From positions 8,517 through 65,464 of the forward strand of contig MGIT01000004.1 in NCBI GenBank assembly GCA_001793895.1: a stretch of DNA of 56,948 bases, read 5' to 3'. The stretch is from Candidatus Wolfebacteria bacterium RIFOXYB1_FULL_54_12 (GTDB lineage: Bacteria > Patescibacteriota > Minisyncoccia > UBA6257 > UBA9933). Below are positions 881 through 50,302 of the stretch, one piece after another (the first letter of the stretch is position 1; each line of letters starts with the position of its first letter). The notes below the pieces were generated by a model. The model was not told the DNA's origin. It worked only from the letters and a program-made list of their open reading frames with translations, and ran no database searches. The position numbers and the translations under genes were made by a program.

Positions 881-997
881 GTCATCCTGAGTTAACTGAC
901 ATGTAATCATGTCACCCTGAACTTGTTTCAGGGTCTGCGTGTGTTTCAGGATCTTATTGTTTATATATGAGATTCCGGCTCGGAGGCCGGAATGACA
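881..997. repeat. 117-bp composite hairpin repeat with TGTCAT/ATGACA termini; inverted partner at 2720..2836
   Basis: The reverse complement of 881..997 matches 2720..2836 except for a ~13-bp central patch. Confidence 0.9.
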
Positions 998-1012
998 ATA
1001 CGCGCAATTTGT

Positions 1013-5003: not shown

Positions 5004-5101
5004 CCCGTTTGTCATTCCCGCGGAGGCGGGAATCCACTACCTTATTTATCAAGATATATTCCACCATACCGAACTTCGGTGCTTTTTTCAATAAAGTTTT
5101 T

Positions 5102-5170
5102 TGTCATTCCGGCCTCCGAGCCGGAATCTTACCTAATCACCACGAGATTCTGAAACAAGTTCAGAATGAC
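5102..5170. repeat. ~70-bp double-hairpin element
   Basis: tgtcattccggcctccgagccggaatct-N-gattctgaaacaagttcagaatgac. Confidence 0.85.
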
Positions 5171-5177
5171 GATGTAA

Positions 5178-6272: not shown

Positions 6273-6274
6273 GT

Positions 6275-6343
6275 TGTCATTCCGGACTTGATCCGGAATC
6301 TCATTGATCGAACACGAGATCCTGAAACAAGTTCAGGATGACA
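6275..6343. repeat. ~70-bp double-hairpin element
   Basis: tgtcattccggacttgatccggaatct-N-gatcctgaaacaagttcaggatgaca. Confidence 0.85.
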
Positions 6344-6350
6344 CGCTAAA

Positions 6351-11999: not shown

Positions 12000-12028
12000 A
12001 ATGTAACGATGTCAGACATCGTTACATT
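12000..12028. repeat. REP-like palindrome AATGTAACGATGTC-A-GACATCGTTACATT
   Basis: Variant of the palindrome flanking the Y1 transposase at 52.3 kb, with stem positions changed on both arms. Confidence 0.75.
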
Positions 12029-12860
12029 ATTTTTCTTTGTATTGTTTGATTGTTCCGTTTTCGATGATTAACTGGACCATGCCGTCGGTGTCGGTGCGGA
12101 ACAGGCGGGCTTTGGCCTGTTTGATGCGGTTCAGCACTTCAGCGGTCGGGTGGCCGTAGGAGTTCTTGCCCACCTCTATTACGGCAATTTGAGGGCGTAC
12201 GGCACGCAAAAACTCCGCGGTCGTGGAAAATCGCGACCCGTGATGTGGGATCTTTAAAATATCGGCCTTTACATTTTTACTCCCCGCAAGCTGCAGCTCC
12301 GTGTCTTTACCTATGTCGCCCGTGAACAATGTCGAGATTCCTTCGCTCGTGAGTTTTGCCACCAGCGCACCTTCATTCTTGTTTTTCCCGTGCGCGGACA
12401 AAATATCTATCTTGCTTTTTATGTGGGCTATGCCACCCCCTTCGTTCAAACTGATAACCGGAATATTCTTTTCTTTTACTAAACTTGCCAGCTCTTTAAA
12501 ACTTTCCGAGTTGCTTCCTGTGCCGTTATATATAAATGCGCCAACCTCATAGTGCTTCAATACATCAAGCAACCCGCCAAAATGGTCAAGTTCCGCGTGC
12601 GATAGCATAATAATATCAATATAGCGGTCATGCCAAGGCAATACAGCCCCCAATTGTTGCGCGGCCTTGCCGTTTGGCGGGCCGCCATCGATCAACAATT
12701 TTACGCCGCCCGGCATAACCACCATTTCGCTATCGCCTTGCCCTACGGCAAAGAAATACAATTCGAGCCGCTTACCGAAGTCGTCGAATATGATACTACC
12801 CCACGCGAGCATATCGAGGATGACCAGACCGACGATGATTATTTTGAGATTGGTTTTCAT
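12027..12860 (-). CDS. comEC: ComEC/Rec2 C-terminal metallo-beta-lactamase domain protein (separate ORF)
   Basis: N-terminal TM segment, then FFAVGQGDSEMVV, IIMLSHAELDHFGGL and KIPHHGS motifs. Confidence 0.8.
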   Translation of the reverse strand: MKTNLKIIIVGLVILDMLAWGSIIFDDFGKRLELYFFAVGQGDSEMVVMPGGVKLLIDGGPPNGKAAQQLGAVLPWHDRYIDIIMLSHAELDHFGGLLDVLKHYEVGAFIYNGTGSNSESFKELASLVKEKNIPVISLNEGGGIAHIKSKIDILSAHGKNKNEGALVAKLTSEGISTLFTGDIGKDTELQLAGSKNVKADILKIPHHGSRFSTTAEFLRAVRPQIAVIEVGKNSYGHPTAEVLNRIKQAKARLFRTDTDGMVQLIIENGTIKQYKEK

Positions 12861-12870
12861 GTGAACTATT

Positions 12871-12939
12871 TGTCATCCTGAACTCGTTTCAGGATCTTAT
12901 GTTCTGTTGGCGAGATTCCGAAACAAGTTCGGAATGACA
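12871..12939. repeat. ~70-bp double-hairpin element between the two comEC ORFs
   Basis: tgtcatcctgaactcgtttcaggatct-N-gattccgaaacaagttcggaatgaca. Confidence 0.85.
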
Positions 12940-12975
12940 ATGCAAGGAATAATGCGCGGGGGATAATGCGAGAAG

Positions 12976-14433
12976 TTAGGGTTGTGCAGCGTGTGCAGTG
13001 GTAGTCAATATTTGCGTCTTGCGATGACGCAAATATAGCAGCATTCCTCCGGCGGCGGCGTAATAGAATAATAGCAATACACCCGTCATTGGCATTGTAA
13101 ATCCTTTATATGTGCCGAATAGTTCTATTACTCCTATCTCGTATTGCAACAGCACCGACACGCCCCATGCGGGTATGGTCGCCAGCGGAGCCGCAACAAA
13201 TCCGATTGCCGCGATAAGAAACCCCAATCCCATCGTAACGGGAATAAATGAAAGAATGACGATGTTGGATGCCAACGACACCAGCGAAAAAGAGCCAACG
13301 GATTGCATCAATATGGGAAACACCATAAGTTGCGCGGATAGCGTGCCCGACAAGTTTTCCCGCCAATTCAATATGCCGCTTTTCTTTCGCTTGATGTATG
13401 CGTCAAGATATGGCTTCACATAAATGATGCCTATCAGCGCGGCGAATGAAAGCTGAAACCCGAGGTCGTACCGAAGCACATTCGGGTTATATAGCACCAT
13501 CGCGCAGGCACTTATGGCGATCGCATTGCGCATACTATGCGTGCGCCCTATGTGGGTTGCCAACAACACGATACTCCCCATGATCGCCGCGCGCACCACC
13601 GACGCTTCGGCTCCGGCCATAACCACGAAACCCACGACAGCGCCAAGTGTTGCGTAAAATGCCGCCGTGCGGCGCAACAGCAACCCGCAGGCCAACAGTA
13701 TCGCTTCCGCAACCACACTGATGTTGTACCCGGACAGCGCAACCAAGTGCGTCGTGCCGCTGTTTGCCATATTTTCCCTAAACTCCCGGTCGAACTCGGC
13801 GCGTTCGCCCAGTGTGATCCCCGCGAGCAGTGCCGCTTCTTTGGCAGGCAGTGCCCGCTTGTATATTTCCACGGCCGACCTCCTTATCGCGAACAGCCGC
13901 GTTACGATCGGATTGCCGTCGTTTCTTTTTACCATATCCACCTCGGGAAATTGCATCGTTGCAAACAATGCGTCTTTCAATAAAAATCTCCAGTTGTCTT
14001 CTTTTGGGTTTTGCACATTCCCTGTCAGCACAAGCGCATCACCATATGCTACGGTCGGATATGCTCGAGCTACTACCGAAAGTCTTCCCGTATGTGGCTC
14101 GTCCAGCCGCACGATAAGCCTTTGGCTGTTTTCCATCTTTCGGACCTCTATTACATGCGCGCGTATTGCCGCCTGTGTGCCTATGAGCGGCGCTATTTGG
14201 TCCCGTTGATGCACATTATATCCGGTCCAATACAACCCGCCCAATATGCCCATGAGCGCAAGCGTAGCCAGCCACCCCAGTCGGACACTCCCCTTTTTGT
14301 ATGCGACCCAACCGAGGCTTCCCGCAATAGCCACAGCACTTACGGACATGCCCGCGAGACTCATTGTCGGAGCAAAAAATATGCCAAGCAGAAAAAACAC
14401 GATCCCAAAAAATACGGACTCGTGGAGATGCAT
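12976..14433 (-). CDS. comEC: ComEC/Rec2 competence channel domain protein (N-terminal/membrane part)
   Basis: 485 aa polytopic protein with an OB-like segment (RAHVIEVRKMENSQRLIVRLDEP) and a THLVALSGYNISVV competence-domain motif. Confidence 0.8.
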   Translation of the reverse strand: MHLHESVFFGIVFFLLGIFFAPTMSLAGMSVSAVAIAGSLGWVAYKKGSVRLGWLATLALMGILGGLYWTGYNVHQRDQIAPLIGTQAAIRAHVIEVRKMENSQRLIVRLDEPHTGRLSVVARAYPTVAYGDALVLTGNVQNPKEDNWRFLLKDALFATMQFPEVDMVKRNDGNPIVTRLFAIRRSAVEIYKRALPAKEAALLAGITLGERAEFDREFRENMANSGTTHLVALSGYNISVVAEAILLACGLLLRRTAAFYATLGAVVGFVVMAGAEASVVRAAIMGSIVLLATHIGRTHSMRNAIAISACAMVLYNPNVLRYDLGFQLSFAALIGIIYVKPYLDAYIKRKKSGILNWRENLSGTLSAQLMVFPILMQSVGSFSLVSLASNIVILSFIPVTMGLGFLIAAIGFVAAPLATIPAWGVSVLLQYEIGVIELFGTYKGFTMPMTGVLLLFYYAAAGGMLLYLRHRKTQILTTTAHAAQP

Positions 14434-14443
14434 GCGCGTCAGT

Positions 14444-14579
14444 TGTCATTCCGGAATTCGCCAGCAGGCGAATATCCGGAATCCAGTACATTATACATAT
14501 ATAAGTTTTGCGCTCCGCAATTGGTTGAAATGGATTCCCGCCTCCGCGGGAATGACAGAAAATGAAGCACGGGATGACA
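14444..14579. repeat. hairpin-repeat cluster
   Basis: Includes ggattcccgcctccgcgggaatgaca at 14532..14557. Confidence 0.8.
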
Positions 14580-15457: not shown

Positions 15458-15742
15458 CTATAATATCTCATATAAATCACTCCACGCCTTATTATCTTTT
15501 TCTATTAGCTCCACCTTCCATTCTCTCTTCCACTTCTTCATTTGTTTTTCCCTTTCTATTGCGGCATACACATCACTTGTTTGTTCAAAATACATCAATC
15601 TATCCACATTGTATTTTTTTGTAAATCCTTTTACAATCTTTTGCTTGTGCTCCCACACTCTCCGCTTCACATCATTAGTTACGCCGATATACAATACTCC
15701 ATCCTTTTTGTTTGTGAGAATATATACGTAATAATTATTCAT
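15458..15742 (-). CDS. GIY-YIG nuclease family protein (UPF0213-like)
   Basis: YYVYILTNKKDGVLYIGVTNDVKRRVWEHK, 94 aa. Confidence 0.85.
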   Translation of the reverse strand: MNNYYVYILTNKKDGVLYIGVTNDVKRRVWEHKQKIVKGFTKKYNVDRLMYFEQTSDVYAAIEREKQMKKWKREWKVELIEKDNKAWSDLYEIL

Positions 15743-15867
15743 ATGAGATTCCTGCTGGAGTTTATCCCGTACTTGATACGGGACCCGCGTCAGGAATGAC
15801 AGCCGATGTGAATAATTTTATTATACCATACAAGCTCTTTCCTAAATCGTCTACCAATATATTCATC

Positions 15868-16274: not shown

Positions 16275-16533
16275 TGTCATTCCGGACGTGGGCCCCGTAT
16301 CAAGTACGGGATAAACTCCGGCGGGGATCCAGAGTTTTCTGCAGTAGCGGTGACTCGCGCAATAGACACTGGATTCCCGTTTTCACGGGAATGACAATGC
16401 GAATATGTACGTCATCAGATGACGTACATTGGCTGAGTGCTGTATACCGGCTTCCGCGCTCCGTGTGCCACCGCTAAAGCTTCGGCGACACGCGGTCGGC
16501 CATAGCCTTCGGCGGCGTGCGACCGGTATGACA
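16275..16533. repeat. hairpin-repeat array including a triple-hairpin composite and the REP-like palindrome ATGTACGTCATC-A-GATGACGTACAT (16405..16429)
   Basis: Direct reading; shares CCAGAGTTTTCTGCAGTAGCGGTG with 32.3 kb. Confidence 0.8.
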
Positions 16534-17333: not shown

Positions 17334-17463
17334 GGATGTAGAGTAATGTAAAAAGACGTGAGGGACAAGGAATAGACCCTAACCTATGACCTATAACCAA
17401 TAACTAATAACGGGGGGGTAATTCCTAATTACTAATTTTTAATTTCTAATAGGGAATGCGGGG

Positions 17464-17533
17464 TGTCATCCTGAACTTGATTCAGGATCTCGTGATAAAA
17501 CAATAAGATTCCGGCTCTGAGGCCGGAATGACA
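17464..17533. repeat. ~70-bp double-hairpin element
   Basis: Near-identical to 33256..33325, including the spacer. Confidence 0.85.
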
Positions 17534-17552
17534 CATACCACATACTTTGTTA

Positions 17553-17590
17553 TAAAAAAATAGGGGGCTGCCTCGCGCAAGGCAGCCCCC
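17553..17590 (-). terminator. Rho-independent terminator
   Basis: GGGGGCTGCCT-tgcgcg-AGGCAGCCCCC followed by a T-run on the minus strand. Confidence 0.75.
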
Positions 17591-18176: not shown

Positions 18177-18270
18177 GTGTCACCCCGACGGATGCCGGGG
18201 CCCAGAGTTTCCTGCAGCGGCGTGGTTTTACATAAGATACTCTGGATACCGGCCTCCGCCGGTATGACAA
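18177..18270. repeat. triple-hairpin composite element
   Basis: gtgtcaccccgacggatgccgggg-cccagagtttcctgcagcggcgtgg...ctctggataccggcctccgccggtatgaca. Confidence 0.75.
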
Positions 18271-18289
18271 TACGGGGGGGGGAGAAAAC

Positions 18290-18328
18290 TAAAAACCGCC
18301 AGCCCGTCGGTTGCCGGGCTGGCGGTTT
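18290..18328 (-). terminator. Rho-independent terminator after rpsA (bidirectional shape)
   Basis: ACCGCCAGCCCG-loop-CGGGCTGGCGGT with flanking A and T runs. Confidence 0.7.
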
Positions 18329-18339
18329 TTGTATCAGGT

Positions 18340-19491: not shown

Positions 19492-19657
19492 AGACCAACA
19501 GCATACGTAAAAACTATTTGAAAATCAAGGGGAAATGGGGTATTATAGGAACTAAGCCACAAGAAGTGAAGTGCGCGTATTGTCATTCCCGCGAAGGCGG
19601 GAATCCACTTCTATTTAAATAGATTCCCGCCTTCGCGGGAATGACAGCGATACTTTT

Positions 19658-20281: not shown

Positions 20282-20291
20282 CGAATACAGC

Positions 20292-20360
20292 TGTCATTCC
20301 GAACTTGTTTCGGAATCTCGTGTATAGTCGATAAGATCCTGAAATAAATTCAGGATGACA
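20292..20360. repeat. ~70-bp double-hairpin element
   Basis: tgtcattccgaacttgtttcggaatct-N-gatcctgaaataaattcaggatgaca. Confidence 0.85.
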
Positions 20361-20669
20361 AGCAAAATCATGCGCCACCAACTCCAGCGGATCCGTCGCT
20401 CCGACACAAAAACAAAGCGAAAATGGCTCATTGGACTAAGTAGCGTCTCCGTTCTGATTATCATTTTTGCGTGGATACTCTATATGCAGGCATTCGTATT
20501 CACGAGATCGGATGACAGCACAAAAGAGGACGTCCATATCGCCTTTTGGCCGGTACTCAAAACCGGACTTTCTATTACCGGATCGTCCATCAGACATACA
20601 TTTAATGACATCCTTTTGGAAATGCCGGAGGTCGGAAGAAGGACCACAACAATAGAGAATCCAGAATAA
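20355..20669 (+). CDS. hypothetical membrane protein (start uncertain; the first ATG comes from a repeat)
   Basis: Basic N-terminus followed by one TM segment (LIGLSSVSVLIIIFAWILY). Confidence 0.4.
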   Translation: MTSKIMRHQLQRIRRSDTKTKRKWLIGLSSVSVLIIIFAWILYMQAFVFTRSDDSTKEDVHIAFWPVLKTGLSITGSSIRHTFNDILLEMPEVGRRTTTIENPE

Positions 20670-20748
20670 CCATACTACCACATTGTCTGTCATTCCCGCG
20701 GAGGCGGGAATCCACTACCCTATTAAATAGATTCCCGCCTCCGCGGGA

Positions 20749-23223
20749 ATGACAACGAAACAACCCACCATGGACGAACAGACAGATAAAGTTGAAAAAA
20801 GGGGGATCGAACGCGAGCTCCAAGAATGTTACCTCGACTACGCGATGTCGGTCATTATTTCGCGCGCATTGCCCGATGTCCGCGACGGCATGAAGCCGGT
20901 GCAACGGCGTATTTTGTGGGCCATGTGGGAAACGGGCCTGAAGGCAGGCGTAAAATACCGCAAGTCCGCGGCCGTTGTCGGCGAAGTACTCAAGAGCTAT
21001 CACCCGCACGGTGACTCCGCAGTGTACGATGCCATGGCACGCATGGCGCAAGACTTTTCGCTTCGCTACCCGCTGATCGATGGTCAAGGAAACTGGGGAT
21101 CCATCGACGGCGACAACCAGGCGGCGATGCGTTACACCGAGTGCCGTCTTTCCAAAATATCCGAAGAACTTTTATTCGACATTGAAAAGGATACCGTTGC
21201 ATGGGGTCCGAACTACGACGGCACTTCCGAAGAGCCGCTCGTATTGCCGGCACGGCTCCCGGCCCTGCTTTTGAACGGCGTCGCCGGCATCGCCGTTGGC
21301 ATGGCCACCAACATTCCGCCGCACAACCTGCGCGAAATAGTCGATGCCATTTTGCATCTTTCCGAAAATCCGCACGCAAGCACCGATGACCTGATTCAAT
21401 TCATCAAAGGCCCGGACTTCCCGACCGGTGGCATCATCTACGACAAGCGCGCCATAGCCGAAGCGTACAAGACCGGCCGTGGTGGCGTGACCATGCGCGC
21501 CGTTTCCGACATCCATGAGCGCAAGAGCGGACTGTTTAATATCGTCATCACCGAGATCCCGTATCAGGTCAACAAATCGGAACTGCTCGCAAAAATAGCC
21601 GGGCTTGTTACCGAGAAGAAGATTGAGGGCATCAAGGACCTGCGCGACGAATCGGACCGCGACGGATTGCGCGTGGTCGTCGAACTGAAAAATGACGCCG
21701 CACCGCAAAAGGTTTTAAACCAGCTCTACAAGCACACCGATCTGCAGAAGAACTTTAACTTCAACATGACGGCGCTCATTCCGTCTCCGGGCGGGTTGCA
21801 ACCACAGCTGCTTTCGTTGAAGGACATTCTCGGGTTCTACCTTGAGCACCGCAAGGAAGTGGTCCGCAAGCGCGCCGAATATGAATTGCGCAAGGCGCAA
21901 GAGCGCGCACATATATTGGAAGGCCTCGCCAAGGCGCTCGAGTTCATTGATGCCGTCATTGCGACCATCAAGAAGTCAAAGGACAAAGAAGAGGCGCATG
22001 AAAACCTCATAAAGAAGTTCAAGCTCACCTCCATTCAAACGACGGCTATCCTTGAAATGCGCCTGCAAACGCTTGCCGCTCTTGAGAGCAAAAAAATCGA
22101 AGACGAGCTGAAAGAAAAGATGCGCATCATCAAGGAACTCCAAACGCTTTTGGCGAGCGTTGCAAAGATCTTGGGCGTCATCACGAACGAACTACGCGAT
22201 CTGCGCGACAAGTTCGGCGATGATCGCCGCACCAAGGTCGTGCCGGGCGCCATCGGCGAGTTCAAAGAGATCGATCTCATTCCTGAAGAGGACGTCATCA
22301 TCACCCTTTCCCAAAGCGGCTATATCAAGCGCGTTACGGCCGACACCTACAAGGCGCAGAAGCGCGGCGGCAAAGGATTGATCGGTTCCGAAGTAAATGA
22401 AGAAGATACGCTCGTAAACTTCATTTCGGGGAACACGCACGATAACATTTTGTTCTTTACCCACACGGGGCGCGTGTTCCAGACAAAGGTCTACGATGTG
22501 CCGCAAGGTAGCCGCACCGCGAAAGGCAAGCTGATGCAAAACTTCCTTGATCTTCCTCCTGAAGAAAAGATCAATGCGGTCATCGCCTACCCCGATGGAG
22601 GCGTCGAAGGTCGCTACCTCGTCATGCTTACCGCAGACGGAACGATCAAAAAGACGTCACTGTCCGAGTTTGCCAATATCCGCAGGACCGGCATCATCGC
22701 CATCAACCTTACAAAGGGCGACTCGCTCATCGGCGTGAAACTTTCCTCCGGCAAGGACGAGATCATCATCACCACCAATGCCGGTCAAGCCATTCGCTTC
22801 AAGGAAACCGACACCAAGCCGCTCGGACGCGCGGCGGCAGGCGTACGCGGTATCAAACTGAAAAAGGATGACCGCGTCGCAGGATTCGACATCGTGCGCA
22901 CCGACCAAAAGGCAGATCACAAAAAACAAACGCTGCTCGTGGTGTCCGAAAACGGATTTGCGAAGCAAACTCCGATCAGTGAATACAAAACGCAGACCCG
23001 CGGAGGCATGGGTATCAAGACCTCCAATGTCACCCCGAAGATCGGCAACATCATCAGCGGACAGATCATCCGCGAAGAAGAAGAGCTGCTCGCCATTTCC
23101 AATAAAGGTCAGATCATCCGCATCCCGCTTAAGGATGTGCGCACCGCAGGCAGGGCAACCAGCGGCGTGAAGATCATGTCACTCAAGGAGAAGGACAAGC
23201 TTGCAGGAGTTGTGGCGCTGTAA
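20749..23223 (+). CDS. gyrA: DNA gyrase subunit A
   Basis: [29 protein letters not shown] and C-terminal beta-pinwheel repeats. The first ATG is the ATGACA end of a repeat; an alternative start is at 20770. Confidence 0.95.
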
Positions 23224-23291: not shown

Positions 23292-23314
23292 ACCTTACCC
23301 ACTCCGCCGCATTG

Positions 23315-23475
23315 TCATTCCGGACTTGACCCTCGGCGTTGCTAGTAATCCGCCAGCCGGCGGAGAGCGTGCAACGTGCCGGGATACTCGAAGCGCATAA
23401 AGTTTGCGCGCTTCAAGTGATCCGGAATCTCGTGGACTAGTTGCGAGATCCTGAAACAAGTTCAGGATGACAGCC
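23315..23475. repeat. double-hairpin element carrying a ~90-nt nested insert (23329..23418)
   Basis: Same insert as at 32448..32536 and 48350..48438. Confidence 0.85.
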
Positions 23476-23570
23476 GGCAATTCTTGCCATCCCGATCCGC
23501 CGGCTGGCGGACGAGGAATCTGCAGCTGTTATTGGTTGTAGGTTATCGGTTGTCAGTTTATACTATACAT

Positions 23571-24854: not shown

Positions 24855-24903
24855 AGTCTGTCGCCCTGATGGAGGACGAAATAATGATGCGAGAGGGGAA
24901 GAG

Positions 24904-24972
24904 TGTCATCCTGAACTTGTTTCAGGATCTCATGTTCTTCCAAAAAGATTCCGGATCGAGTCCGGAATGACA
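24904..24972. repeat. ~70-bp double-hairpin element
   Basis: Direct reading. Confidence 0.85.
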
Positions 24973-25003
24973 ATACAATAAATCAACGGTACAATATATC
25001 CAT

Positions 25004-29299: not shown

Positions 29300-29510
29300 A
29301 AGCAGATCCCTCCGCTTCTTCGTCAGTTGACGGATGCGGTCGGGATGACAGGATACTGGATTCCCGCCTCCGCGGGAATGACAGAGAGTGGGGTGGGAAT
29401 GACGACGGGGTGATAAAATGAAAAAGAACTGGATTCCCGTTTTCACGGGAATGACAGGACGGGAGGCGGGAATGACACCGTGCTGGATTCTTATTTTCAC
29501 AGAAATTACA
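29300..29510. repeat. hairpin-repeat array
   Basis: ggattcccgcctccgcgggaatgaca, ggattcccgttttcacgggaatgaca, and others. Confidence 0.8.
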
Positions 29511-30715: not shown

Positions 30716-31125
30716 ACCTATGACCGATAACTAATGACCGATAACGGGATGCTGGATTCCCGCCTCCGCGGGAATGACAATGCGGGGGGGGTGACGATGC
30801 GCTTGAGTGTCATCCCCGCGGAGGCGGGGATCCAGGCTTTTTTGCGGTGGCGCCGTTTCGTGCCTGAGACCCTGGATCCCGTGTCGTAGCACGGGATGAC
30901 AATGCGGGGAGGGATAACGATGCAAAAAGAAATGCGACGCGACGCGCGTGTCATCCCCGCGGAGGCGGGGATCCACTACTACTGCAAATGGATTCCCGCC
31001 TCCGCGGGAATGACAAAGAGAGGGGGCGGGAGTGGTAGAGGGGGTGCAGGAATGATGATGCGATGCTGGATGCCTCCGCCCATAGCGGACGTGAATGACA
31101 ATACGGGGAGGGATAAAAAAATAAA
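30716..31125. repeat. dense hairpin-repeat array (single and triple-hairpin units, heptamer block at the 5' end)
   Basis: For example, 30874..30901 ggatcccgtgtcgtagcacgggatgaca. The tail ATGACAATGCGGGG recurs. Confidence 0.85.
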
Positions 31126-31131: not shown

Positions 31132-32049
31132 TCAATCGCTTTTATTTTTTCTTCTTCGGCCGTGGAATGTTTGGTGTATCTCCTTGAGCTCCTTGTTGGT
31201 TATGTGCGTGTATATTTGCGTGGTCGCTATGTTGGCATGGCCGAGCATTTCTTGTACCGACCGTATGTCCGCTCCGTTGATCAACAGGTCGGTGGCGAAT
31301 GAATGCCGCAACATGTGCGGATGCACATGCTTTGCGATGCCCGCCTTGCGCGAATAAAAATCAACCAGCCGTTGCACGGTTCGCGGAACGATTCGCCCTA
31401 TGACCTTCGGGCTTTTTGCCTTTGTGTAGCTCACAAACATCGCCTCCTCTGCGTCTCCCCTCTTTTCCAAATAATTTTTAATTTCCTTTACCGAGCGCCC
31501 GTCCAAAAATACAACCCGCAGCTTATTTCCCTTTCCGCGCACCGTTACTTCTCCCCGATCGAAATCCATATAACGGTTCAAACTGCACAGCTCCGATATG
31601 CGCAATCCGGTCGAGAATAATACCTCGAGTATCGCGCGATCGCGCAATGCCTTTGTGTCGCCTCCGCTCACGGCGTTCAAGAGCCGTTCCAGTTCGTCGT
31701 ACTCCATAACCTCTATTTGCCGTGCCGGCACTTTGGGCAGCTCTATCTTGTCGGGCGATAATACTTTGTGGTCATTTTTTATCAAATACTTCAAAAAGTT
31801 TCTCAACGCTATTATATAGTAGCTCTGCGTAGACTTGCTATACCGATCCCCTCTGCCGTTCGATGATCGCGCCAAGTGCAGCCGAAAATCCCGCACCCGC
31901 TCCACGGTTATGTCCGCTTCGCTTTTGATTCCCTCGACCTCGAAAAACTTTTTCAAATATCGCCCGTAATTCTCCCCCGTCTTTTGCGAGCGATTTTTTT
32001 CAATTTCGAGATAGTCGAGATATTCCTTTAACAGCACGTTTACGTCCAT
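31132..32049 (-). CDS. XerC/XerD-family tyrosine site-specific recombinase
   Basis: HPHMLRHSFATDLLINGADIRSVQEMLGHANIATTQIYTH, 305 aa. Confidence 0.85.
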   Translation of the reverse strand: MDVNVLLKEYLDYLEIEKNRSQKTGENYGRYLKKFFEVEGIKSEADITVERVRDFRLHLARSSNGRGDRYSKSTQSYYIIALRNFLKYLIKNDHKVLSPDKIELPKVPARQIEVMEYDELERLLNAVSGGDTKALRDRAILEVLFSTGLRISELCSLNRYMDFDRGEVTVRGKGNKLRVVFLDGRSVKEIKNYLEKRGDAEEAMFVSYTKAKSPKVIGRIVPRTVQRLVDFYSRKAGIAKHVHPHMLRHSFATDLLINGADIRSVQEMLGHANIATTQIYTHITNKELKEIHQTFHGRRRKNKSD

Positions 32050-32169: not shown

Positions 32170-32745
32170 GATGACTAATAACGGGGTGCGGGAAAATGAC
32201 ACACTCCCCTGTATTGTCATCCCCGCGGAGGCGGGGATCCACTACCACTGCAATGGAATGCGAGGAGGTTTGTCATCCCGCACCACGATGCGGGATCCAG
32301 AGTTTTCTGCAGTAGCGGTGCCTTGTGCTAAAGACTCTGGATCCCGTGTCGGAGCACGGGATGACAATGCGGGGGGGGATGGGTTGGAGATGCGAGATGA
32401 GGGGGGGGGGGAGATGGGAGGGGGGAAAAAGAGCCATCCTGAACTTGACCCTCGGCGTTGCTAACAATCCGTCAGCCGACGGAGAGTGTGCAACGTGCCG
32501 GGATACTCGAAGCGCATAAGGTCTCGCGCTTCAAGTGATTCAGAATCTCGCGATAAACAATAAGATTCCGAAACAAGTTCGGAATGACAGATAGTCGAGG
32601 CGGGGATCCGGTGTTCAAATGCAAAATACTGGATTCCCGTTTTCACGGGAATGACAATGCAAGATACTAGATCCCGGCCTCCGCCGGGATGACAATGCGA
32701 AATACTGGATTCCCGCCTCCGCGGGAATGACAGAGAGGGGGATTT
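32170..32745. repeat. hairpin-repeat array including a triple-hairpin composite and a nested-insert element (32448..32536)
   Basis: Direct reading. Confidence 0.85.
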
Positions 32746-32767
32746 TGCCGAATTTTTGTAGAACAGG

Positions 32768-33115
32768 TGTGAAACAATAATGTTTCACATTCGGCAAAAC
32801 TAAAAAATATGAGATAAAATGTTTCACGTGAAACACTTTATCTCATATTTAGCCCCTAGGTGTGAAACAAAGTTGTTTCACACCGTGCGCAGTGTTTCAC
32901 GTGAAACAATTTATCTCATTTTTCGCCCCTGCTCGCCTTTTTAGCGATTTGTGAAATCTGTCATTTTGAACAAATTGTTTCACGTGAAACAATTTGCCTC
33001 GTTTTAGGGGCCTAAGTGTGAAACAAAGTTGTTTCACACCGTGCACAGTGTTTCACGTGAAACACTTTATCTCGTTTTACCCCGGATTCCTTGAATAATT
33101 GTTTCACGTGAAACA
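32768..33115. other. parS (ParB-binding, centromere-like) site array: 5 perfect TGTTTCACGTGAAACA plus 3 everted palindromes
   Basis: Perfect 16-mers at 32820, 32893, 32976, 33049 and 33100. GTGTGAAACA-N4-TGTTTCACAC-type palindromes at 32768, 32860 and 33016. Confidence 0.8.
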
Positions 33116-33171
33116 CTTTTGCTCACTTTTTGGCATTTTGCCTATTTATTGGTTCGGCAGTTACCCCTGAG

Positions 33172-33180
33172 TTATCCACA
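33172..33180 (+). other. perfect DnaA box TTATCCACA
   Basis: Exact 9-mer, embedded in the inverted repeat GAGTTATCC...GGATAACTC. Confidence 0.5.
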
Positions 33181-33255
33181 CCCGATTGGGGATAACTCGG
33201 CAAGAGCGGGGGGCGGGTATACGGTACGGGGGGGGGAAAGAGATCAGATGAGAGG

Positions 33256-33325
33256 TGTCATCCTGAACTTGATTCAGGATCTCGTGATTAAACAATAAGA
33301 TTCCGGCTCGGAGGCCGGAATGACA
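33256..33325. repeat. ~70-bp double-hairpin element
   Basis: Direct reading. Confidence 0.85.
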
Positions 33326-33391
33326 ACACCCCTCCCCCGGGGGGGCGCGCGCAGGATGGCGTGGCACGGGTTCGGGTTGTATACTGTTGGC

Positions 33392-33804: not shown

Positions 33805-34020
33805 CAATGCACTGGATCCCGTGTCGTAGCACGGGATGACAATGCGGGGGGGGATGGGTTGGAGATGCGAGATGAGGGGGGGGATGGGAGGGTGGATGAC
33901 AATGCGCTTAAGTGTCACCCCGGCGAAGGCCGGGGTCCAGTGTTTTCTGCGGTGGTAACATATAGATACTCAGACTCTGGATCCCGTGTCGGAGCACGGG
34001 ATGACAATACAGGGGGGAGG
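33805..34020. repeat. hairpin-repeat array with a triple-hairpin composite
   Basis: Direct reading. Confidence 0.8.
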
Positions 34021-34094
34021 GAGATGTGAGAGTGGAGATGAGAGATTAGAGGTGAGAAAAATAGTGGAGATGAGATAATTCGGCAACTTTTATG

Positions 34095-34103: not shown

Positions 34104-34599
34104 CTTGCACTGTTTGCCGAATGTTTTGTATACTGTAGTCAGATATACATGGGTAGCACAATTCAATATCTAACACGGCTTTGATTCCCTCTTGCGTCGG
34201 AAAAAATAAGTCACACCGCCACTTAATTAATTCGGTGCGTATCATCAATATATATTCCTTCCGTCAGCGTGCGGGGTGGGGAATGACCCTCAAGGAAAGT
34301 TACTACTTTCCACGGGCAAGCGATTTACTGGATACCGGCCTTCGCCGGTATGACAATACAGTCGCGGGATATGACATCTACTCAACACTAATTAATTACA
34401 AGGTGGTACAGCTCACTTGAACCGCACATGACACTCTTGCGTTTGTCATCTCGCATATGTTCGTCTCTTTTGTCTTTTTCCAAAAAGACTTTTTGTCGTT
34501 TTGGTTTGCCTGCAACGAAGTCATGCACGATAGATTCCTACTTGACTGCCCATCGGCAGGGAGGCCATAGAAATTATAGCAATTACAGATTCCTCGACT

Positions 34600-35305
34600 T
34601 CACGGATTACCGTTCCGCTCGGAATGACAGAGGGGCGGAGTGTCATCCTGAACTTGTTTCAGGATCTCTCCGAGAGAACACAAGATTCCGGCTCGGAGGC
34701 CGGAATGACGGGGAGAGGATCGGGATGACAAGGCGAGGCAATACGAATAAACTGCAGATTCCTCTCCGCCGGCTGGCGGATCCGAATGACAATGCGAAGA
34801 TGGATTCCCGCCTGCGCGGGAATGACAGAGGGGAGAGCGGGATGGCAAGGCGGAACTGGATACCGGCTTTCGCCGGTATGACAATGCGGGGAGGGATGAC
34901 GGAGAAAAACAAATCTCATTTTTAAAAAATAACTTCGCTAAAAAAAATTTTACTACACACATGCAATTGATTTCCAAATTTAACAAAATGATGAAAAGAT
35001 GGATTCCCGCCTCCGCGGGAATGACAGGGAGGGGAAGGATGACGGGGAAGTGGATACCGGTCCCCGATCAGGTCGAGGACGGGCCCTCACCCGCCGGTAT
35101 GACAATGCGGGGAGGGATGGCGGAGAGGAGGAGTGTCATCCTGAACTCGTTTCAGGATCTCTCCGAGAGAACACAAGATTCCGGCTCGGAGGCCGGAATG
35201 ACAGGGAAAGGAGGAGTGACAATACAAAATAAAATGACGACATTAAAAAACAAAATGACAAAGCAGGGAGGGATGACGGGGAAGTGGATTCCCGCCTTCG
35301 CGGGA
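34600..35305. repeat. hairpin-repeat array upstream of the giant gene (two near-identical double-hairpin units at 34641..34709 and 35134..35203)
   Basis: Direct reading; translated as WIPASAGMT-type pseudo-peptide in the listed ORF. Confidence 0.85.
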
Positions 35306-38300
35306 ATGACAACACGCAAAACTCTCCGCACATTTGCAACTCGCGGGGTTGTGTTTGCTATGGTACTGATGATGGCGTTGTCGAATGTGTTTATGGCGAA
35401 CGCGGCGACGTATACATTTATACAGACCGACTGGAGCGGCGGGCAATCGGCGGCGACCGCTGTTGACCCGACCAACCTTACCGGATGGACGCAATATGCA
35501 ACTGCGAGCACTTCGCTGGCCATTGGCACAAGCGTTGCGCTGACCACTACCAGCACTTCCATTACACAGACCGATGAAGGCGCGACCAATACCGGTTTTA
35601 ATTTGAGCGGAAGCAGTTTTTCCCAAACGGAAGTCAGCGGTACCGGAGCTTCCGCATCGGTTCTGCTTCAGAACACTTCGGTGTCTCCGGGGACGAAACA
35701 AATAGCTGCGGGGAATTACTTTTCCTGCGCGCTCAAAACCGATGGGTCGGTGATGTGTTGGGGAAAAAATTCTACCGGCACACTCGGGGATGGCACAAAC
35801 ACCCAAAGAAACATTCCCACCCAAGTGTCCGGCTTAACTGCCGGTACGGTGAAGGCGCTCACCGCGGGAGCTAACCATACCTGTGCACTCAAGACCGACG
35901 GATCGGTAGTGTGTTGGGGGAGTAATTATTATGGCCAAGGCGGGAATGGTGCTGACACGACTAGATACATCCCTACTCAAGTCTCTGGCCTGACCGCGGG
36001 TACGGTAAAGGAAATTACTGCGGGAGATAATCATACCTGCGCACTCAAGACCGACGGATCGGCTGTGTGCTGGGGGCAAAATGACAACGGTCAAATTGGG
36101 GATACTACTCTCACGAGTCGATACATCCCCACCCAGGTATCCGGCTTGACCGCAGGCACGGTAAAGGGAATTTCCGGGGGAACTTACCATACCTGCGCAC
36201 TCAAGACCGACGGATCGGCGGTGTGTTGGGGAAATGGTGATAATGGTCGGCGTGGGGATGGCACCACCACACAAGTAACTATCCCCACTCAGGTGTCCGG
36301 CTTGACCGCAGGCACGGTGAAAGAAATTGTGGCGAGATATGATCATACCTGCGCACTCAAGACCGACGGATCGGCTGTGTGTTGGGGAAGTAATACATAT
36401 GGACAAATGGGGGATAATACCACCACGGAGAGACTCATCCCTACCCAGGTTTCCGGGTTGACGGCAGGCACGGTGAATAAAATCGTTACAGAATATCGTC
36501 ACACCTGCGCACTCAAAACCGACGGTTCGGCGGTGTGCTGGGGGTATAACGCATATGGACAGATAGGGGATAATACCACCACACAGAGACTCGTCCCTAC
36601 CCAGGTTTCCGGGTTGACGGCAGGCACGGTGAAAGAAATTACCGGGGGATATTACCACACCTGCGCACTTAAGACCGATGGGTCGGTGATATGTTGGGGA
36701 TTCAACGGCAATGGCCAACTCGGTGATAACACCACTACGCAAAGACTCATCCCCACCCAGGTATCCGGTTTGGTGACCGGGAGCGGGCAGGAGAAGATTG
36801 TTAAGGGAGATTTCCACACCTGCGCACTCAAGAACGACGGATCGGTAGTGTGTTGGGGTCAGAACACGGAAGGTCAGATCGGGGACAACACTACTGCAAA
36901 TAAGTCCATCCCTACACAGGTCTCGGGATTGACTGCCGGCACGGTGAAGGAAATTACCGGGGGAACATATCACACCTGCGCACTCAAGACCGACGGTTCG
37001 ATGGTGTGTTGGGGGGGTAATTATACCGGTCAGATCGGGGATAATACCACCACTCAAAGAAACGTTCCCACCCAAGTGTCTGGACTTACGGCTGGCACGG
37101 TAAAGGAAATTACTGCGGGAGCTACTCATACCTGCGCACTTAAGACCGACGGATCGGCGGTGTGTTGGGGGTATAATATTTTCAGTCAGCTTGGAGATAG
37201 TACCACCGAAAACAAATCCATCCCCACCCAGGTGTCCGGCTTGACTGCAGGCACGGTGAATGAAGTTGATGTAGGAGATAACCACTCCTGCGCACTCAAG
37301 ACCGATGGAACAATGGTGTGTTGGGGGCTTAATAGCAGTGGACAACTTGGCGACAATACCACCGCAAATAAATCCATCCCCACCCAGGTGTCCGGCTTGA
37401 CTGCAGGTACGGTGAAAGAAATTATGGCGGGAGGTTATCACACCTGCGCGCTCAAGACCGATGGAGCAATGGTGTGTTGGGGGCTTAATTCTTATGGTCA
37501 AATTGGGGATAATACCGAGACCCAAAGACTCATCCCCACTCAGGTGTCCGGCTTGACTGCAGGTACGGTAAATGAAATTACGGTAGGATATAACCACACC
37601 TGCGCACTCAAGACCGACGGTTCGGCGAGGTGTTGGGGGGGTAACAGCCATGGCCAACTCGGAGATAGCACCGCTACATACAGAATCATTCCCACCCAGG
37701 TGTCCAGCTTGACTGCCGGCACTGTAAAGGAAGTTGTGGCGGGATATCTCAACGCTTGTGCTATTAAGACCGATAGTGCGGCTGTGTGTTGGGGATATAA
37801 TGGCCAGGGTCAGCTTGGGGACGGGACTCTCGAAGGTAAATATATCCCCACCCAGGTCTCGGGCCTGACCGCAGGAGGAGGCGGTAGCGTATATGCCGCA
37901 TCCGGCACATACACGTCCGGTGCGATGGACATCGGCGAGATTTCAGGATATACGACACTCGCCTACACTGCATCCACGAGCGTGCAGGCGACGCTGACTA
38001 TCGACGCGCGCAGTGGAAACACGGCAACGCCCGATGGCACATGGACCGCGTGGCAGACCGGCATTGCAACGGGCGGAAGCATTTCCACACTCGGCACAAA
38101 CCGCTACTTCCAGTACCAGGCAAATTTAGCAACAAGCGACACCGGGCAAACGCCAACCCTGGACTCCGTTTCTGTCGGCTACAGCGCTTATGCAACCAAC
38201 CAAACACTGACCTCGTCGAAGTATGACACCGGCGCAGTGGAAAACAGCATGGGTTCCCTTATATGGGATGAGGACGCTTCCTTGCCGACCGGCACGACCA

Positions 38301-44299: not shown

Positions 44300-44490
44300 T
44301 GCCTCGCTCACTGGATACCGGCTTTCTCCGGTATGACAGAGGGGTGCTGGATTCCCGTTTTCACGGGAATGACAATGCACTGGGATACCGGCTTTCGCCG
44401 GTATGACAATGCACTGGATTCCCGCCGGAGTTTATCCCGTACTTGATACGGGACCCGCATTGGGAATGACACGTGCGCGGGAGCGTCATC
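44300..44490. repeat. hairpin-repeat array
   Basis: ggataccggctttctccggtatgaca, ggattcccgttttcacgggaatgaca, ggataccggctttcgccggtatgaca, and others. Confidence 0.85.
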
Positions 44491-44508: not shown

Positions 44509-46653
44509 TTATTTTCGGCCTTCAACGATCTGTTGGGTGATGTTGTTCGGCACTTCTTCATAATGGTCGAATACCATTGAGAAGCTTCCTCGACCTTGAG
44601 TCATTGAGCGCAACTTGGTCGCGTATCCGAACATTTCGGACAGCGGTACCATGGCGTCGATAACTTTGATGTTTGAACGGTCATTCATCGATTCGATGCG
44701 TCCGCGCTTCGAGTTGATGTCGCCGGTGATGTCGCCCATGAATTCGGTCGGTACCAATACCTGCACCGCCATGAACGGTTCGGTCAATACCGGCTTTGCC
44801 TTCTTTGCCGCGTCGGCGAATGCCATACCTGCGGCGAGTTTGAACGCGATTTCGGATGAGTCGACCTCGTGGAACGATCCATCGTACAACGTCACTTCGA
44901 CGTCGGACAACGGGAATCCTGCGATGACGCCCTTATCCATTGATTCGCGCAAGCCTTTTTCAACGGGGGATATGAACTCCTGCGGAATTGCACCTCCTTT
45001 GATCTGGTTCACGAAGACAAATCCTTTGCCCTGCTCTGACGGCTTCATCTTGATCTTTACGTGTCCGTATTGACCCTTACCACCGGACTGCTTCACGTAC
45101 TTTCCTTCGGCATCCGCTTCGCCTTTGATGGCTTCGCGGTAGGCTACCTGCGGTCGGCCCGTGTTCGCTTCAACGTTGAACTCGCGCTTCATGCGGTCGA
45201 TGAGAATTTCAAGATGAAGTTCTCCCATACCGGCAATGATCGTTTCTCCCGTTTCCTGATCGCTCGAGATGCGGAAGGTCGGATCTTCTTCGGCAAGGCG
45301 TCGCATGGCGATACCCATCTTTTCCTGGTCAGCCTTGGTCTTCGGCTCGATGCGAACCGAGATTACCGGCTCAGGGAAGGTGATCTTCTCCAAAACGATC
45401 GGCTTTTCCGGGTCGCACAAGGTGTCGCCGGTCGATGTATTCTTCAACCCGACGATGGCGCCAAGGTCTCCCGCATACATTTCGTCGACTTCTTCGCGCT
45501 TGTTCGAGTGCATGCGCACGATGCGGCTGATGCGTTCCTGATTTCCTTTGCTCGAGTTTAATATGTAGCTGCCCTTTTTGAGCACGCCGGCATATACGCG
45601 GAAATAGGTGAGTGAACCCACGAACGGATCGGTCGCTATCTTGAATGCGAGGCCGGTAAACGGCTCCTCATCGTTCGGCTTGCGGGTCAATGCGATCGAT
45701 TCATCGCGCACATCGGTTCCCTTGATTGGCTTCAGCTCGTCGACTTCCACCGGTGACGGCAGATAATCGATGATCGCGTCGAGCAGGAGCTGTACGCCCT
45801 TGTTCTTCAGCGCCGAACCGGTCAACACCGGCACGAGCCTGTTGTCGATAGTCGCCACGCGCAATGCGGCGCGCAACTCATCTTCGGATATATCTTCTCC
45901 ACCCAAATATTTTTCCATGAGCGCTTCGTCCGTCTCGACGATTCTTTCGACGAGTACGGCGCGCAACGCGTCGGTCTTTTCCTTCAAGTCCGCCGGGATC
46001 TCTTCTTCGACGATGGTTTCGCCATTATTTCCCTTGAACCGGATCGCTTGCATCGTCATCAGGTCTACAACGCCATCAAAATTGGCTTCCGAGCCGATCG
46101 GGTACTGCAGTGCCACCGCATTGGTGGTCAACCGCTCGTGGATCGTGCGGAATGAATGATCGAAGCTCGCGCCAGTGCGGTCCATCTTGTTAATGAAGCA
46201 CATGCGCGGAACGCGATACTTGTCCGCCTGATGCCACACCGTTTCCGACTGCGGCTCTACGCCCGCAACGCCGTCAAACGCTACGACGCCTCCGTCGAGT
46301 ACGCGCAATGAGCGCTCCACTTCAACGGTAAAGTCTACGTGGCCCGGGGTGTCGATTATGTTGATGCGATGTTCGTTCAGCTTCTTTACCTCCTTTCGCT
46401 CCTCGTCGCTTTTCAGGTGACGCGTCTTGCGGCTCGAGGTCCAGAAACAGTTTGTCGCGGCAGACGTAATGGTGATGCCGCGCTCACGCTCCTGTTCCAT
46501 CCAGTCCATGATGGCTTCGCCTTCATGCACCTCGCCGATGCGATGGGAAATACCGGTGTAGAACAAAATGCGTTCGCTGATCGTTGTCTTGCCCGCATCG
46601 ATGTGGGCAATGATCCCGATATCGCGATATCTATCTATTGGATATTGTCTCAT
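44509..46653 (-). CDS. fusA: elongation factor G
   Basis: [31 protein letters not shown], 714 aa. Confidence 0.95.
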
Positions 46654-46751
46654 ATAAATAACCTATAACCTATAACCGATAACCGATAACGGGATGCGGA
46701 TTGCATCTAATTCCGTTTCATTGTTATGGGTTTTTGGTTTTCGGTTGTTTG
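46654..46751 (-). repeat. ~100-nt intercistronic element (rpsG-fusA spacer)
   Basis: About 90% identical to 47220..47320. Heptamer arms flank the core GGGATGCGGATTGCATCTAATTCCGTTTCATTGTT. Confidence 0.85.
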
Positions 46752-47219
46752 TTATCTTGCAAAGTGTGCGAAGGCGCGGTTTGCTTCGGCCATCTTGTGC
46801 ACGTTTTGCTTCTTTTTGATCGCGGTTCCTTCGCCCTTATAGGAAGCGATGAGTTCTTCAGCGAGACGCTCCGACATAGCCTTGCCTTTTTTGGCCCGTG
46901 CCGCGTCGATCATCCACTTGCAACCCAAGAAAAACTTTCGTTCTGCGCGTACTTCGCGGGGAACCTGATAGTTCGCACCGCCAACGCGCTTACTGACGAC
47001 CTCGAGCAGGGGAGAAGCATTTTCCAGCGCTTTCTCGAACACCTCCAGCGGGCTCATCTGCAATTCCTTTTCAATGATATTGAATGCACCGTATACAACC
47101 CGCTCGGCAACCGTCTTTTCGCCGTCGAACATCATGTAATTGATGAATCGGGACAGCGCGATGGAGCCATGCTTCACATCCGGCGTGTGATATTTTTTAA
47201 ATTTTCTGTTTCTTCGCAT
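46752..47219 (-). CDS. rpsG: 30S ribosomal protein S7
   Basis: DGEKTVAERVVYGAF..., GGANYQVPREV, 155 aa. Confidence 0.9.
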   Translation of the reverse strand: MRRNRKFKKYHTPDVKHGSIALSRFINYMMFDGEKTVAERVVYGAFNIIEKELQMSPLEVFEKALENASPLLEVVSKRVGGANYQVPREVRAERKFFLGCKWMIDAARAKKGKAMSERLAEELIASYKGEGTAIKKKQNVHKMAEANRAFAHFAR

Positions 47220-47320
47220 AATAATGACCTACAACCTATAACCGACAACCGATAACGGGATGCGGATTGCATCTAATTCCGTTTCATTGTTGTGGGTTTT
47301 TGGTTTTCGGTTGTTGGTTT
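47220..47320 (-). repeat. ~100-nt intercistronic element (rpsL-rpsG spacer)
   Basis: See 46654..46751. Confidence 0.85.
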
Positions 47321-48197: not shown

Positions 48198-48336
48198 TTC
48201 TTAACCTACAACCAATAACCTACAACCTACAACCTACAACAGGGTGCGGATTGGCCACTTCTTGAACCAATCCATAATACCTTTACTTATTGCATTAGTC
48301 AATATTTTTTACATTACGGCGTGACCACTTTTTCGT

Positions 48337-48490
48337 CATCCTGAACTTGACCCTCGGCGTTGCTAACGATCCATCAGCCGACGGAGAGTGTGCAACGTGC
48401 CGGGATACTCGAAGCGCATAAGGTCTCGCGCTTCAAGTGTTTCAGGATCTTGTCATAATAACACAAGATTCCGGCTCGGAGGCCGGAATG
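48337..48490. repeat. double-hairpin element with a ~90-nt nested insert (48350..48438)
   Basis: Direct reading. Confidence 0.85.
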
Positions 48491-48544
48491 ACCCCGTAGA
48501 GAAAGCTGCTGCTTTCCACGGGGCAAGCAATGCGGGGAGGGTCG

Positions 48545-49955: not shown

Positions 49956-50302
49956 GTACCTGCCTCCCTATAAAGTAATGATCTTTTACTAAGTCCTAAG
50001 TATATTTTACGTCTTTTGTTTATTTTAGTCAATAACTGCGGGTGGTGTCACCCCGGCGGAGGGGGGCGAGGTGTGAGATGTGAGGTGTGAGATAAGGGGG
50101 AATTTCTAATTTCTAATTAAAATACTGGATTCCCGTTTTCACGGGAATGACAATGCGTGGGGATAACCGATGACCAATAACTAATGACCGATAACTGGGA
50201 TGCGGGATACTGACCGATAACTGATAACGGATAACTAATACCGGGATGCGATGACAATGCGGAAGGTATACAGTATAGGGTATAGGGTATGCAGGGGGAT
50301 TA

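Follow-up and report, generated by a model that had tools for sequence, protein, structure and literature searches.

The DNA described here is a 56,948-nucleotide (nt) stretch, referred to below as the window, from Candidatus Wolfebacteria bacterium RIFOXYB1_FULL_54_12 (GCA_001793895.1, contig MGIT01000004.1), a member of the Patescibacteria. About 70% of the window is coding and 30% non-coding, and its G+C content is about 50%. Its genes match those of groundwater Patescibacteria from Rifle and Hainich. The EF-G protein recurs without a single difference on groundwater metagenome contigs and in assembly GCA_001793905.1, and for two of the window's proteins the closest named relatives are found in Candidatus Wolfebacteria and other Parcubacteria. 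The spaces between the genes hold short, structured repeats that carry the tag TGTC, and inverted copies of these repeats bracket a gene for a small GIY-YIG nuclease, denoted here ssn-like for its resemblance to the ssnA gene of Neisseria. We describe the repeats, the gene and the relation between the two.

Searching the window for the frame GGAT-N12-30-ATGACA returned 41 occurrences where 2.0 are expected. The hexamer ATGACA is present in 110 copies, compared with 20-38 in shuffled sequences, and 55 of these copies abut a perfect 8-bp hairpin, an arrangement that the shuffles never produced. A census based on structure yielded 60 canonical units in 56.9 kb, or about one per kb, together with one spurious match inside a gene (61 entries in all); to be counted, a hairpin needed 8 bp of stem that open with AT, 4-6 loop nucleotides and an immediately following GAC on its 3' side. 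On the + strand a unit reads (T)GG-AT-N6-loop-N6'-AT-GACA, and on the other strand TGTC-AT-N6-loop-N6'-AT-CC(A). Nearly all units (58/60) are intergenic, and the remaining two overlap a predicted start by 2 nt.

All 60 units have a perfectly Watson-Crick paired 8-bp stem with AT at both ends, and loops of 4, 5 and 6 nt are all present among them. The GAC that follows the stem (GTC on the opposite strand) is found in 60/60 units, being a selection criterion; the fourth tag base, the A that makes the tag TGTC, is found in 56 of the 61 census entries. The C just 3' of the palindrome on the TGTC strand (G6 in alignment A1) is also present in 60/60, and this base is independent of the selection. 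Of the 60 units, 28 carry a CCA tail (TGG on the + strand) and the others CTC, CTT or CTA (GAG, AAG or TAG on the + strand), and AT(G/A)C(G/A) follows the unit in 20/60. An earlier note on this DNA, made from the sequence alone, had described dozens of hairpins with constant GGAT...ATGACA flanks and several arrays of them. The abundance of the hairpins, their fixed termini and all of the listed arrays are borne out by the census, but the constant part of the frame is narrower, G-AT...AT-GACA, and the extension ATGCGGGG given in the note is not general.

To avoid circularity, candidates were also selected by their flanks only (GAT-N16-18-ATGACA). In 55 of the 62 candidates the six inner stem positions are perfectly complementary; of the other seven, one shows a lone mismatch and six match by chance. 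In alignment A1, 99.8% of the paired cells are complementary, compared with 30-49% when the partners are slid by 1-3 columns. Both-sided changes occur at five of the eight stem pairs, in 109 cells, there is no one-sided change (G-T wobble, or G-U type) in 480 stem cells, and the observed covariation score was reached by none of 500 shuffles. The compensatory stem changes claimed in the earlier note are supported. Run on the window, a covariance model derived from A1 gives about 65 matches with E < 1e-4. The stem sequence, which the note called free, is in part fixed: its AT/AT pairs are constant, and so is the C-G pair at position 4. The units fall into at least 14 stem classes, with subfamilies of identical copies among them (TCCCGC/ctcc, for example, occurs nine times). 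Because the copies fall into such subfamilies, the cell counts overstate the number of independent events, and the sound evidence for covariation is the number of distinct, always complementary stem types. In predicted DNA folding, the units form hairpins with the tag unpaired.

Thirty-two of the 60 units make up 16 inverted doublets with their tags outward, separated by a spacer of 18-19 nt in 14 of the 16 doublets and of 26 or 44 nt in the others. The remaining 28 are single units, and there are 8 head-to-tail neighbour pairs. The range 30716-31125, for example, comprises five canonical units and one long variant (Table 1). The single units are strongly biased in orientation, with 24/28 on one strand (p=0.0002), or about 17/21 independent loci after our own grouping of the singles. 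Such a bias fits a strand-specific process acting on single-stranded DNA (ssDNA); since the placement of the origin is insecure, it is not firmly linkable to a replichore.

Table 1. Coordinates of the ssn-like gene and of repeat units in the window. A unit is given as '+' when GGAT..ATGACA reads on the + strand; its TGTC-tagged forward strand is then the - strand.
Feature	Position	Strand	Remarks
ssn-like gene, 94-amino-acid (aa) single-domain GIY-YIG nuclease	15458..15742	-	Pfam GIY-YIG, residues 3-76, E=7e-17
TGTC-tagged unit in contact with the start codon of ssn, TGTCATTCCTG[..]CAGGAATCTC	15745..15801	-	20.4 bits
Doublet just after the ssn stop codon	15369..15444		CGTC-AT-CCCGTG.. + ..GCAGGA-AT-GACA
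Unit ctGG-AT-TCCCGC-ctcc-GCGGGA-AT-GACA	30750..30785	+	43.4 bits
Unit, stem CCCCGC, loop ctcc	30802..30837	-	Forms the left half of a wide doublet (right half 30870-30907; spacer 44 nt)
Unit, stem CCCGTG, 6-nt loop tcgtag	30870..30907	+	DNA fold -7.9 kcal/mol
Inverted doublet, tags outward	30943..31021		CCCCGC unit (-) and TCCCGC unit (+), 19-nt spacer
Long/degenerate variant GGATGCCTCCGCCCATAGCGGACGTGAATGACA	31064..31106	+	Weak model match, 12.4 bits
Two same-orientation units	29354..29462	+	Stems TCCCGC, TCCCGT
Three units	32209..32372		32209 (-), 32265 (-), 32335 (+)
Four head-to-tail units	32559..32738	+	TCCGAA, TCCCGT, CCCGGC, TCCCGC
Doublet CCTGAA/TCCGGC	33250..33331		19-nt spacer
Two CCCGTG units and a degenerate unit	33810..34012		CCCGTG units (+); degenerate unit 33907-33942 (-)
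Largest cluster	34326..35317		Singles 34326, 34798, 34854, 34997, 35282 (+); doublets 34635-34716, 35128-35209; long variants 34752-34797, 35048-35110
Three tandem units between rplM and fusA	44309..44414	+
Single unit downstream of thrS	50123..50158	+
Doublets of the same build	5096..5177, 12865-12945, 17458-17539, 19575-19652, 20286-20366, 20682-20760, 24898-24978, 54634-54714		17458-17539: DNA fold -14.9 kcal/mol, z -3.7
Single units	966..1003, 14528-14563, 16367-16402, 18240-18275, 23442-23478, 48462-48499	+
Single units	2714-2751, 3673-3708, 5004-5039	-
Long variants	4847-4890, 14438-14488	-
Filled AsnRS/NDK spacer with doublet (6269-6349)	6273..6350		78 nt vs 7 nt in L206

A six-frame motif scan found one GIY-YIG open reading frame (ORF) in the window, the ssn-like gene at 15458-15742 on the - strand, where the earlier note had seen no matching transposase. 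The repeats bracket it, with one unit directly against the start codon and a doublet just behind the stop codon. A nested hairpin, TCCCGTAtcaagTACGGGA, breaks up the upstream unit, whose orthologue in a sister species (L206, GCA_021839485.1) is intact. Residues Y7, Y18 and E65 of the protein match Y6, Y17 and E64 of Neisseria SsnA with an offset of one residue, an equivalence of the catalytic Tyr, Tyr and Glu that is taken from position and not from structure. A search of PDB sequences gave weak UPF0213 matches only. A 220-kb contig encodes the same protein, and more than 3000 homologues of 94-100 aa exist; identity is 60-70% in Parcubacteria, Omnitrophota, Elusimicrobiota, Methylophaga and Flavicella. 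The gene comEC (12976-14433; DUF4131 and Competence domains, assigned by synteny with L206) is separated from ssn by two protein-coding genes and a tRNA-Leu, in the window and the sister species alike.

A translated search of two N. gonorrhoeae chromosomes returned a single homologous ORF in each, 46.5% identical to the window protein; pairwise comparison gave 47% identity and 78% positives over 77 aa (E=1e-29). Canonical NTS repeats, the oriented repeats of Neisseria, stand on either side of the gonococcal ORF, which is probably the orthologue of ssnA. In one gonococcal locus (L205, NZ_CP119142.1, 1881019-1882676) the ssnA-like ORF is apparently frameshifted near its N-terminus, with only a 71-aa ORF open in this strain; this record is labelled a plasmid and, at 2.17 Mb, is evidently the chromosome.

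The association of the gene with the repeats recurs elsewhere. The exact 27-mer of the commonest window unit is present in at least 118 metagenome contigs (G+C 0.30-0.70), none from the window organism, and usually stands in a doublet with a GTCATCCCC..GGGGATCCAG partner. Among these 118 contigs, chosen for the repeat, five encode an ssn homologue with 36-65% identity to that of the window; a TGTC unit stands just upstream of the gene in 4/5 and an inverted unit just downstream in 5/5. The 27-mer TGGATTCCCGCCTCCGCGGGAATGACA was also found in 20 predicted viral contigs (IMG/VR, L211-L230; G+C 0.42-0.58), and none of these 20 holds an ssn homologue. Flanking repeats are again seen at ssn in L206 and in a more distant relative, L209, where the gene sits with a dense local array at a different locus. 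The same flanks are thus found at ssn in L206, L209 and metagenome contigs.

L206 is syntenic with the window over 4-24 kb at 70-88% nucleotide identity, and carries ssn at the same place, in the order rplS-ssn-cobA-comEC. Seven of the eight model hits in L206 fall within ~650 bp of ssn, and the orthologous 20 kb of the window hold 21 canonical units. Since the units lie almost only at ssn in L206, compared with most spacers in the window, they have spread recently in the window lineage. Two spacers illustrate this difference. The extra DNA between the AsnRS and NDK genes of the window (Table 1) consists of a doublet and short flanks, and the ComEC and Lactamase_B genes, which overlap in L206, lie 115 nt apart in the window with a doublet between them. 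Contigs of the same region (L001-L006) contain no insertion polymorphisms, because they are nearly identical to the window (99.7-100%).

Hairpins of this build have been described in other bacteria. Di Nocera et al. (2013) defined CGTC-tagged REPs in a survey of five phyla; in these the tag is often TGTC and can also be CCTC, the 8-9 bp stems start with AT, the loops have 4-5 nt and the tail is CCA; these REPs are extragenic, mostly inverted dimers, and form large clusters in Neisseria, where they are known as dRS3. No enzyme dedicated to these REPs emerged from that survey, nor did any tyrosine transposase with CGTC repeats around it (PMC3733652). The oriented Neisseria form, NTS (CGTCATTCCCGCGMAVGCGGGAATCYRG), is bound and cut by SsnA, a 94-aa single-domain GIY-YIG nuclease that acts on NTS as ssDNA only, and on one strand only (Chenal et al., Nat Commun 2025, PMC11893778). 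Binding depends most on the C right after the palindrome and cleavage on the three bases before it, and activity is abolished when the stem sequence is changed and the hairpin kept. SsnA does not interact with RNA, and it reduces transformation by motif-bearing DNA. Across phyla, ssnA homologues are flanked by Ssn-related motifs (SRM), and the NTS-ssnA-NTS arrangement was said to resemble an insertion sequence (PMC11893778).

The window hairpins belong to this known class, the CGTC/TGTC-tagged REPs (dRS3/NTS in Neisseria). With the CGTC-1 and CGTC-2 families they share the tag, the AT-initial 8-bp stems, loops of 4-5 nt, the CCA tail, the extragenic location, the dominance of inverted dimers and the existence of subsets that differ in stem and loop; unlike these families, they commonly have 6-nt loops and CTC/CTT tails, and are frequently arrayed head to tail. 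They form mosaic intergenic arrays as do the dRS3/NIME elements of Neisseria. About 18/60 units (stems TCCCGC and TCCCGT) fit ATTCCC-N8-GGGAAT exactly, and CTGC, the loop of Neisseria, recurs in the unit at 34802-34827, whereas the remaining stem classes depart from dRS3. The window contains no DNA uptake sequence and no sign of a filamentous prophage. A Neisseria origin of the DNA was rejected, because the uptake sequence is lacking and the genes match groundwater Patescibacteria.

As in the NTS-SsnA system, the copies are clustered between genes (in Neisseria, there are hundreds of them) and oriented, with (C/T)GTC 5' and C 3' of an ATTCCC..GGGAAT-type palindrome, and the 94-aa GIY-YIG gene, 47% identical to its Neisseria homologue, lies between inverted copies. 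The bases that matter most to SsnA, the C after the palindrome and the GTC before it, are constant in all 60 window units, the GTC having been required for selection. The window form is TGTCATTCCCGCG(A/C)AGGCGGGAATCCA(C/T), to be compared with the published NTS, which has 7 matches in the window when up to two mismatches are allowed. Exact matches to the SRM pattern HGTCWYN(0-2)YYVSBRHN(0-5)WNVSBRGN(0-2)RNCYNB are found in 17 units, compared with 0-2 in 20 shuffles, and the GGAG-loop class misses the pattern at one loop-adjacent position. The window differs from the published system in its tag (TGTC, not CGTC), in the presence of at least 14 stem classes together, in its loops of 4-6 nt, in having many units as 19-nt-spaced heterodimers and in its density of ~1 per kb. 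Its host also differs, being one of the Patescibacteria (candidate phyla radiation, CPR), a group not mentioned in PMC11893778. We found no earlier description of this repeat class in Patescibacteria.

On this evidence we consider it very likely that the repeats are SRMs, of the same class as the CGTC/TGTC-tagged REPs and dRS3/NTS, with the ssn-encoded protein as their partner. The gene at 15458-15742 is a candidate for the cognate enzyme because it is bracketed by repeats, which is the published signature of such an enzyme (PMC11893778). Each unit, as ssDNA, would fold into an 8-bp hairpin with an unpaired (T/C)GTC on its 5' side and C on its 3' side, and the nuclease would recognise this hairpin on one strand only and cleave the DNA a few bases 5' of the tag GTC. 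By analogy with SsnA, the window protein presumably recognises the window units. The SRM-ssn-SRM unit, made of the gene and inverted flanking units, resembles an insertion sequence; the inverted doublets of 60-85 nt may be gene-less miniatures of it, and the family has multiplied through intergenic DNA after the split from the sister species. In the cell, the enzyme might cleave incoming or exposed motif-bearing ssDNA and modulate recombination after natural transformation. Such a role in a competent CPR bacterium is suggested by the Neisseria precedent, and competence has been reported in Patescibacteria (PMC12455944).

Several observations weigh against this explanation. The strict SRM pattern is failed by 43/60 units, mostly at loop-adjacent positions, and the interrupted unit upstream of ssn does not fold as a simple unit. 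No target-site duplication is seen at AsnRS/NDK, the one clean filled/empty site examined. The 57 kb hold at least 14 stem classes and one ssn gene, while Neisseria SsnA depends on the stem sequence; given the many stem classes and the single gene, many units may be poor substrates, or may be served by paralogues elsewhere in the genome.

Whether the folded form is DNA or RNA was left undecided in the earlier note, and our results point to a constraint on DNA. A role in RNA, as terminators, mRNA stabilisers or small RNAs, would suit hairpins that lie between genes, often 3' of coding regions, and such roles have been proposed for REPs of other bacteria; the complete absence of G-U type pairs from the 480 stem cells speaks against it. 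A T-run is missing from most units, and canonical terminators exist apart from the units, which are distal to them in at least 3 cases (for example, the terminator at 18291-18330 precedes unit 18246, and that at 17563-17590 precedes 17468-17529). The units keep the same orientation in oppositely transcribed regions and occur in both orientations relative to transcription. At gathering thresholds, Rfam matches only three tRNAs in the window and none of the repeats, and SsnA ignores RNA (PMC11893778). We place the constraint at the level of DNA because of the lack of wobble pairs, the separate terminators, the independence of orientation, the missing Rfam match and the predicted DNA folds, and regard a function at the RNA level as extremely improbable. 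The related suggestion of the note, a REP, a miniature inverted-repeat transposable element (MITE) or a protein-recognised hairpin, is supported as to a REP-like or protein-recognised element and unsupported as to a MITE with target-site duplication. A MITE of a DDE insertion sequence would have terminal inverted repeats and a target-site duplication; the doublets end in TGTCAT...ATGACA, and no direct repeat borders the inserted segment at AsnRS/NDK, the one clean site examined.

Two other enzymes encoded in the window could be thought to act on the repeats. An IS200-like Y1 (RAYT-like) gene at 52320-53000 encodes an HUH motif (HYH) and a candidate catalytic Tyr and matches Pfam Y1_Tnp (E=1.4e-9); the match to NCBIfam REP_Tyr_transpos (E=6e-8) is weak and under the cut-off, and the PDB sequence search gave weak ISDra2-type matches. 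If this protein moved them, the repeats would be classical REP/REPIN elements. They do resemble REP/BIME/REPIN-RAYT systems in being short extragenic palindromes with an unpaired tag and a likely action as ssDNA, in their REPIN-like inverted doublets and in having a single-copy enzyme gene flanked by repeats, and the bias of the single units (24/28) is as expected for ssDNA-acting elements. The tag, however, is TGTC and not GTAG/GTGG, the flanked enzyme is a GIY-YIG nuclease and not an HUH Y1 transposase, and no CGTC-flanked tyrosine transposase was found in PMC3733652. The Y1 gene is itself flanked (52263-53039) by a different perfect palindrome, AATGTAACGACG-TCGGA-CGTCGTTACATT, and its family, 60-80% identical across Patescibacteria, is bracketed in other genomes by genome-specific palindromes of its own with TCGGA-like loops. 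On 80 loci of Y1 relatives (1.08 Mb), the TGTC model gave 13 matches in 4 loci, leaving 76/80 without any, compared with about 65 matches in the 57-kb window. Because TGTC units are scarce at these loci and the Y1 genes have their own palindromes, the two hairpin systems are separate; we rejected Y1 as the partner of the TGTC units, and think it very unlikely that it moves them. The second enzyme is a tyrosine recombinase whose gene (31132-32049) lies amid the densest arrays. The repeats could be sites for another DNA enzyme of this kind or for chromosome architecture (Xer-type recombinase, attC-like or IS110-type targets), with ssn incidental, and dRS3 of Neisseria is also a phage integration target (PMC11893778). 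Yet the recombinase scores as an ordinary XerC/XerD/XerA-type enzyme, arrays are present at many loci without a recombinase, the units have no attC or dif features, and the association replicated across unrelated contigs is with ssn; we hold this alternative to be highly unlikely.

The palindromes of the Y1 gene have further copies in the window. A third copy lies inside the Y1 ORF, in frame (52477-52505), and encodes KCNDVGRRYIG; Y1 homologues keep (N/K)DVGR(R/P)YI, in which a change of N to K together with R to P would compensate each other within the palindrome of the DNA. A fourth TCGGA-loop copy, with a compensatory change, is found at 11998-12030, and the sequence at 16405-16429 equals the palindrome variant that flanks the Y1 gene in the Wolfebacteria genome CP011209.

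Other features lie near the arrays at 32-35 kb. Within 350 bp (32760-33120) there are five exact TGTTTCACGTGAAACA palindromes, where 0.02 are expected, and three TGTGAAACA-N4-TGTTTCACA palindromes, and two perfect DnaA boxes (TTATCCACA) lie near this cluster, at 33172 and 34095. The cluster may be an array of sites for a regulator or resemble an origin. Positive GC skew is confined to 32-38 kb. A replication origin at 33 kb was not accepted, as DnaA-box matches (18 vs 11) are unenriched, and is also disfavoured by the ribosomal operon to its right, which would be head-on. Between the units, G-rich filler (GGGGGGGATGGG.., GAGATG repeats) is found on the + strand at 32366-32430, 33841-33900 and 34006-34080, and numerous half-sites GGGA(A)TGAC(A/G) that stand alone point to units which have decayed or been truncated. 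A 2296-aa ORF at 34961, encoding an RCC1/WD40-repeat protein, runs in its first ~400 nt through the units at 34997-35317, and its true start is probably near 35360.

Longer repeats are also present. One, of 105-137 nt and without an Rfam match, has copies that are 88-92% identical at 32435-32570, at about 48300-48440 and at 23314-23419; within a doublet-type unit, it occupies the loop of the hairpin on the left, forming a longer composite element. In addition, a 106-nt segment is duplicated with 92% identity upstream of fusA (46648-46753) and upstream of rpsG (47214-47319).

These results carry a warning for annotation, as much of the 'intergenic' DNA of such genomes, and some of their apparent ORFs, consist of repeat arrays. 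They also bring a conflict into view, since the breadth of stem classes alongside one visible ssn disagrees with the sequence dependence of Neisseria SsnA. A further step would be to see SRM-ssn-SRM as an active mobile element with a mechanism of a new type, in which a GIY-YIG ssDNA nuclease takes the place of a transposase and the doublets are the gene-less miniatures. We put this forward tentatively, and think it rather doubtful. If it is true, this CPR lineage records a recent genome-wide burst, in which filled and empty sites could reveal the rule of insertion, and recognition needs only a hairpin together with GTC, AT-N-C...G-N-AT and C. The window adds to the known cases one from a tiny-genome symbiont that is probably competent, as comEC lies two protein-coding genes from ssn, and it fits the reported enrichment of such repeats in symbionts. 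With a repeat-saturated genome and a syntenic sister, it offers filled and empty sites that make the mechanism of spread and the target rule of these repeats testable.

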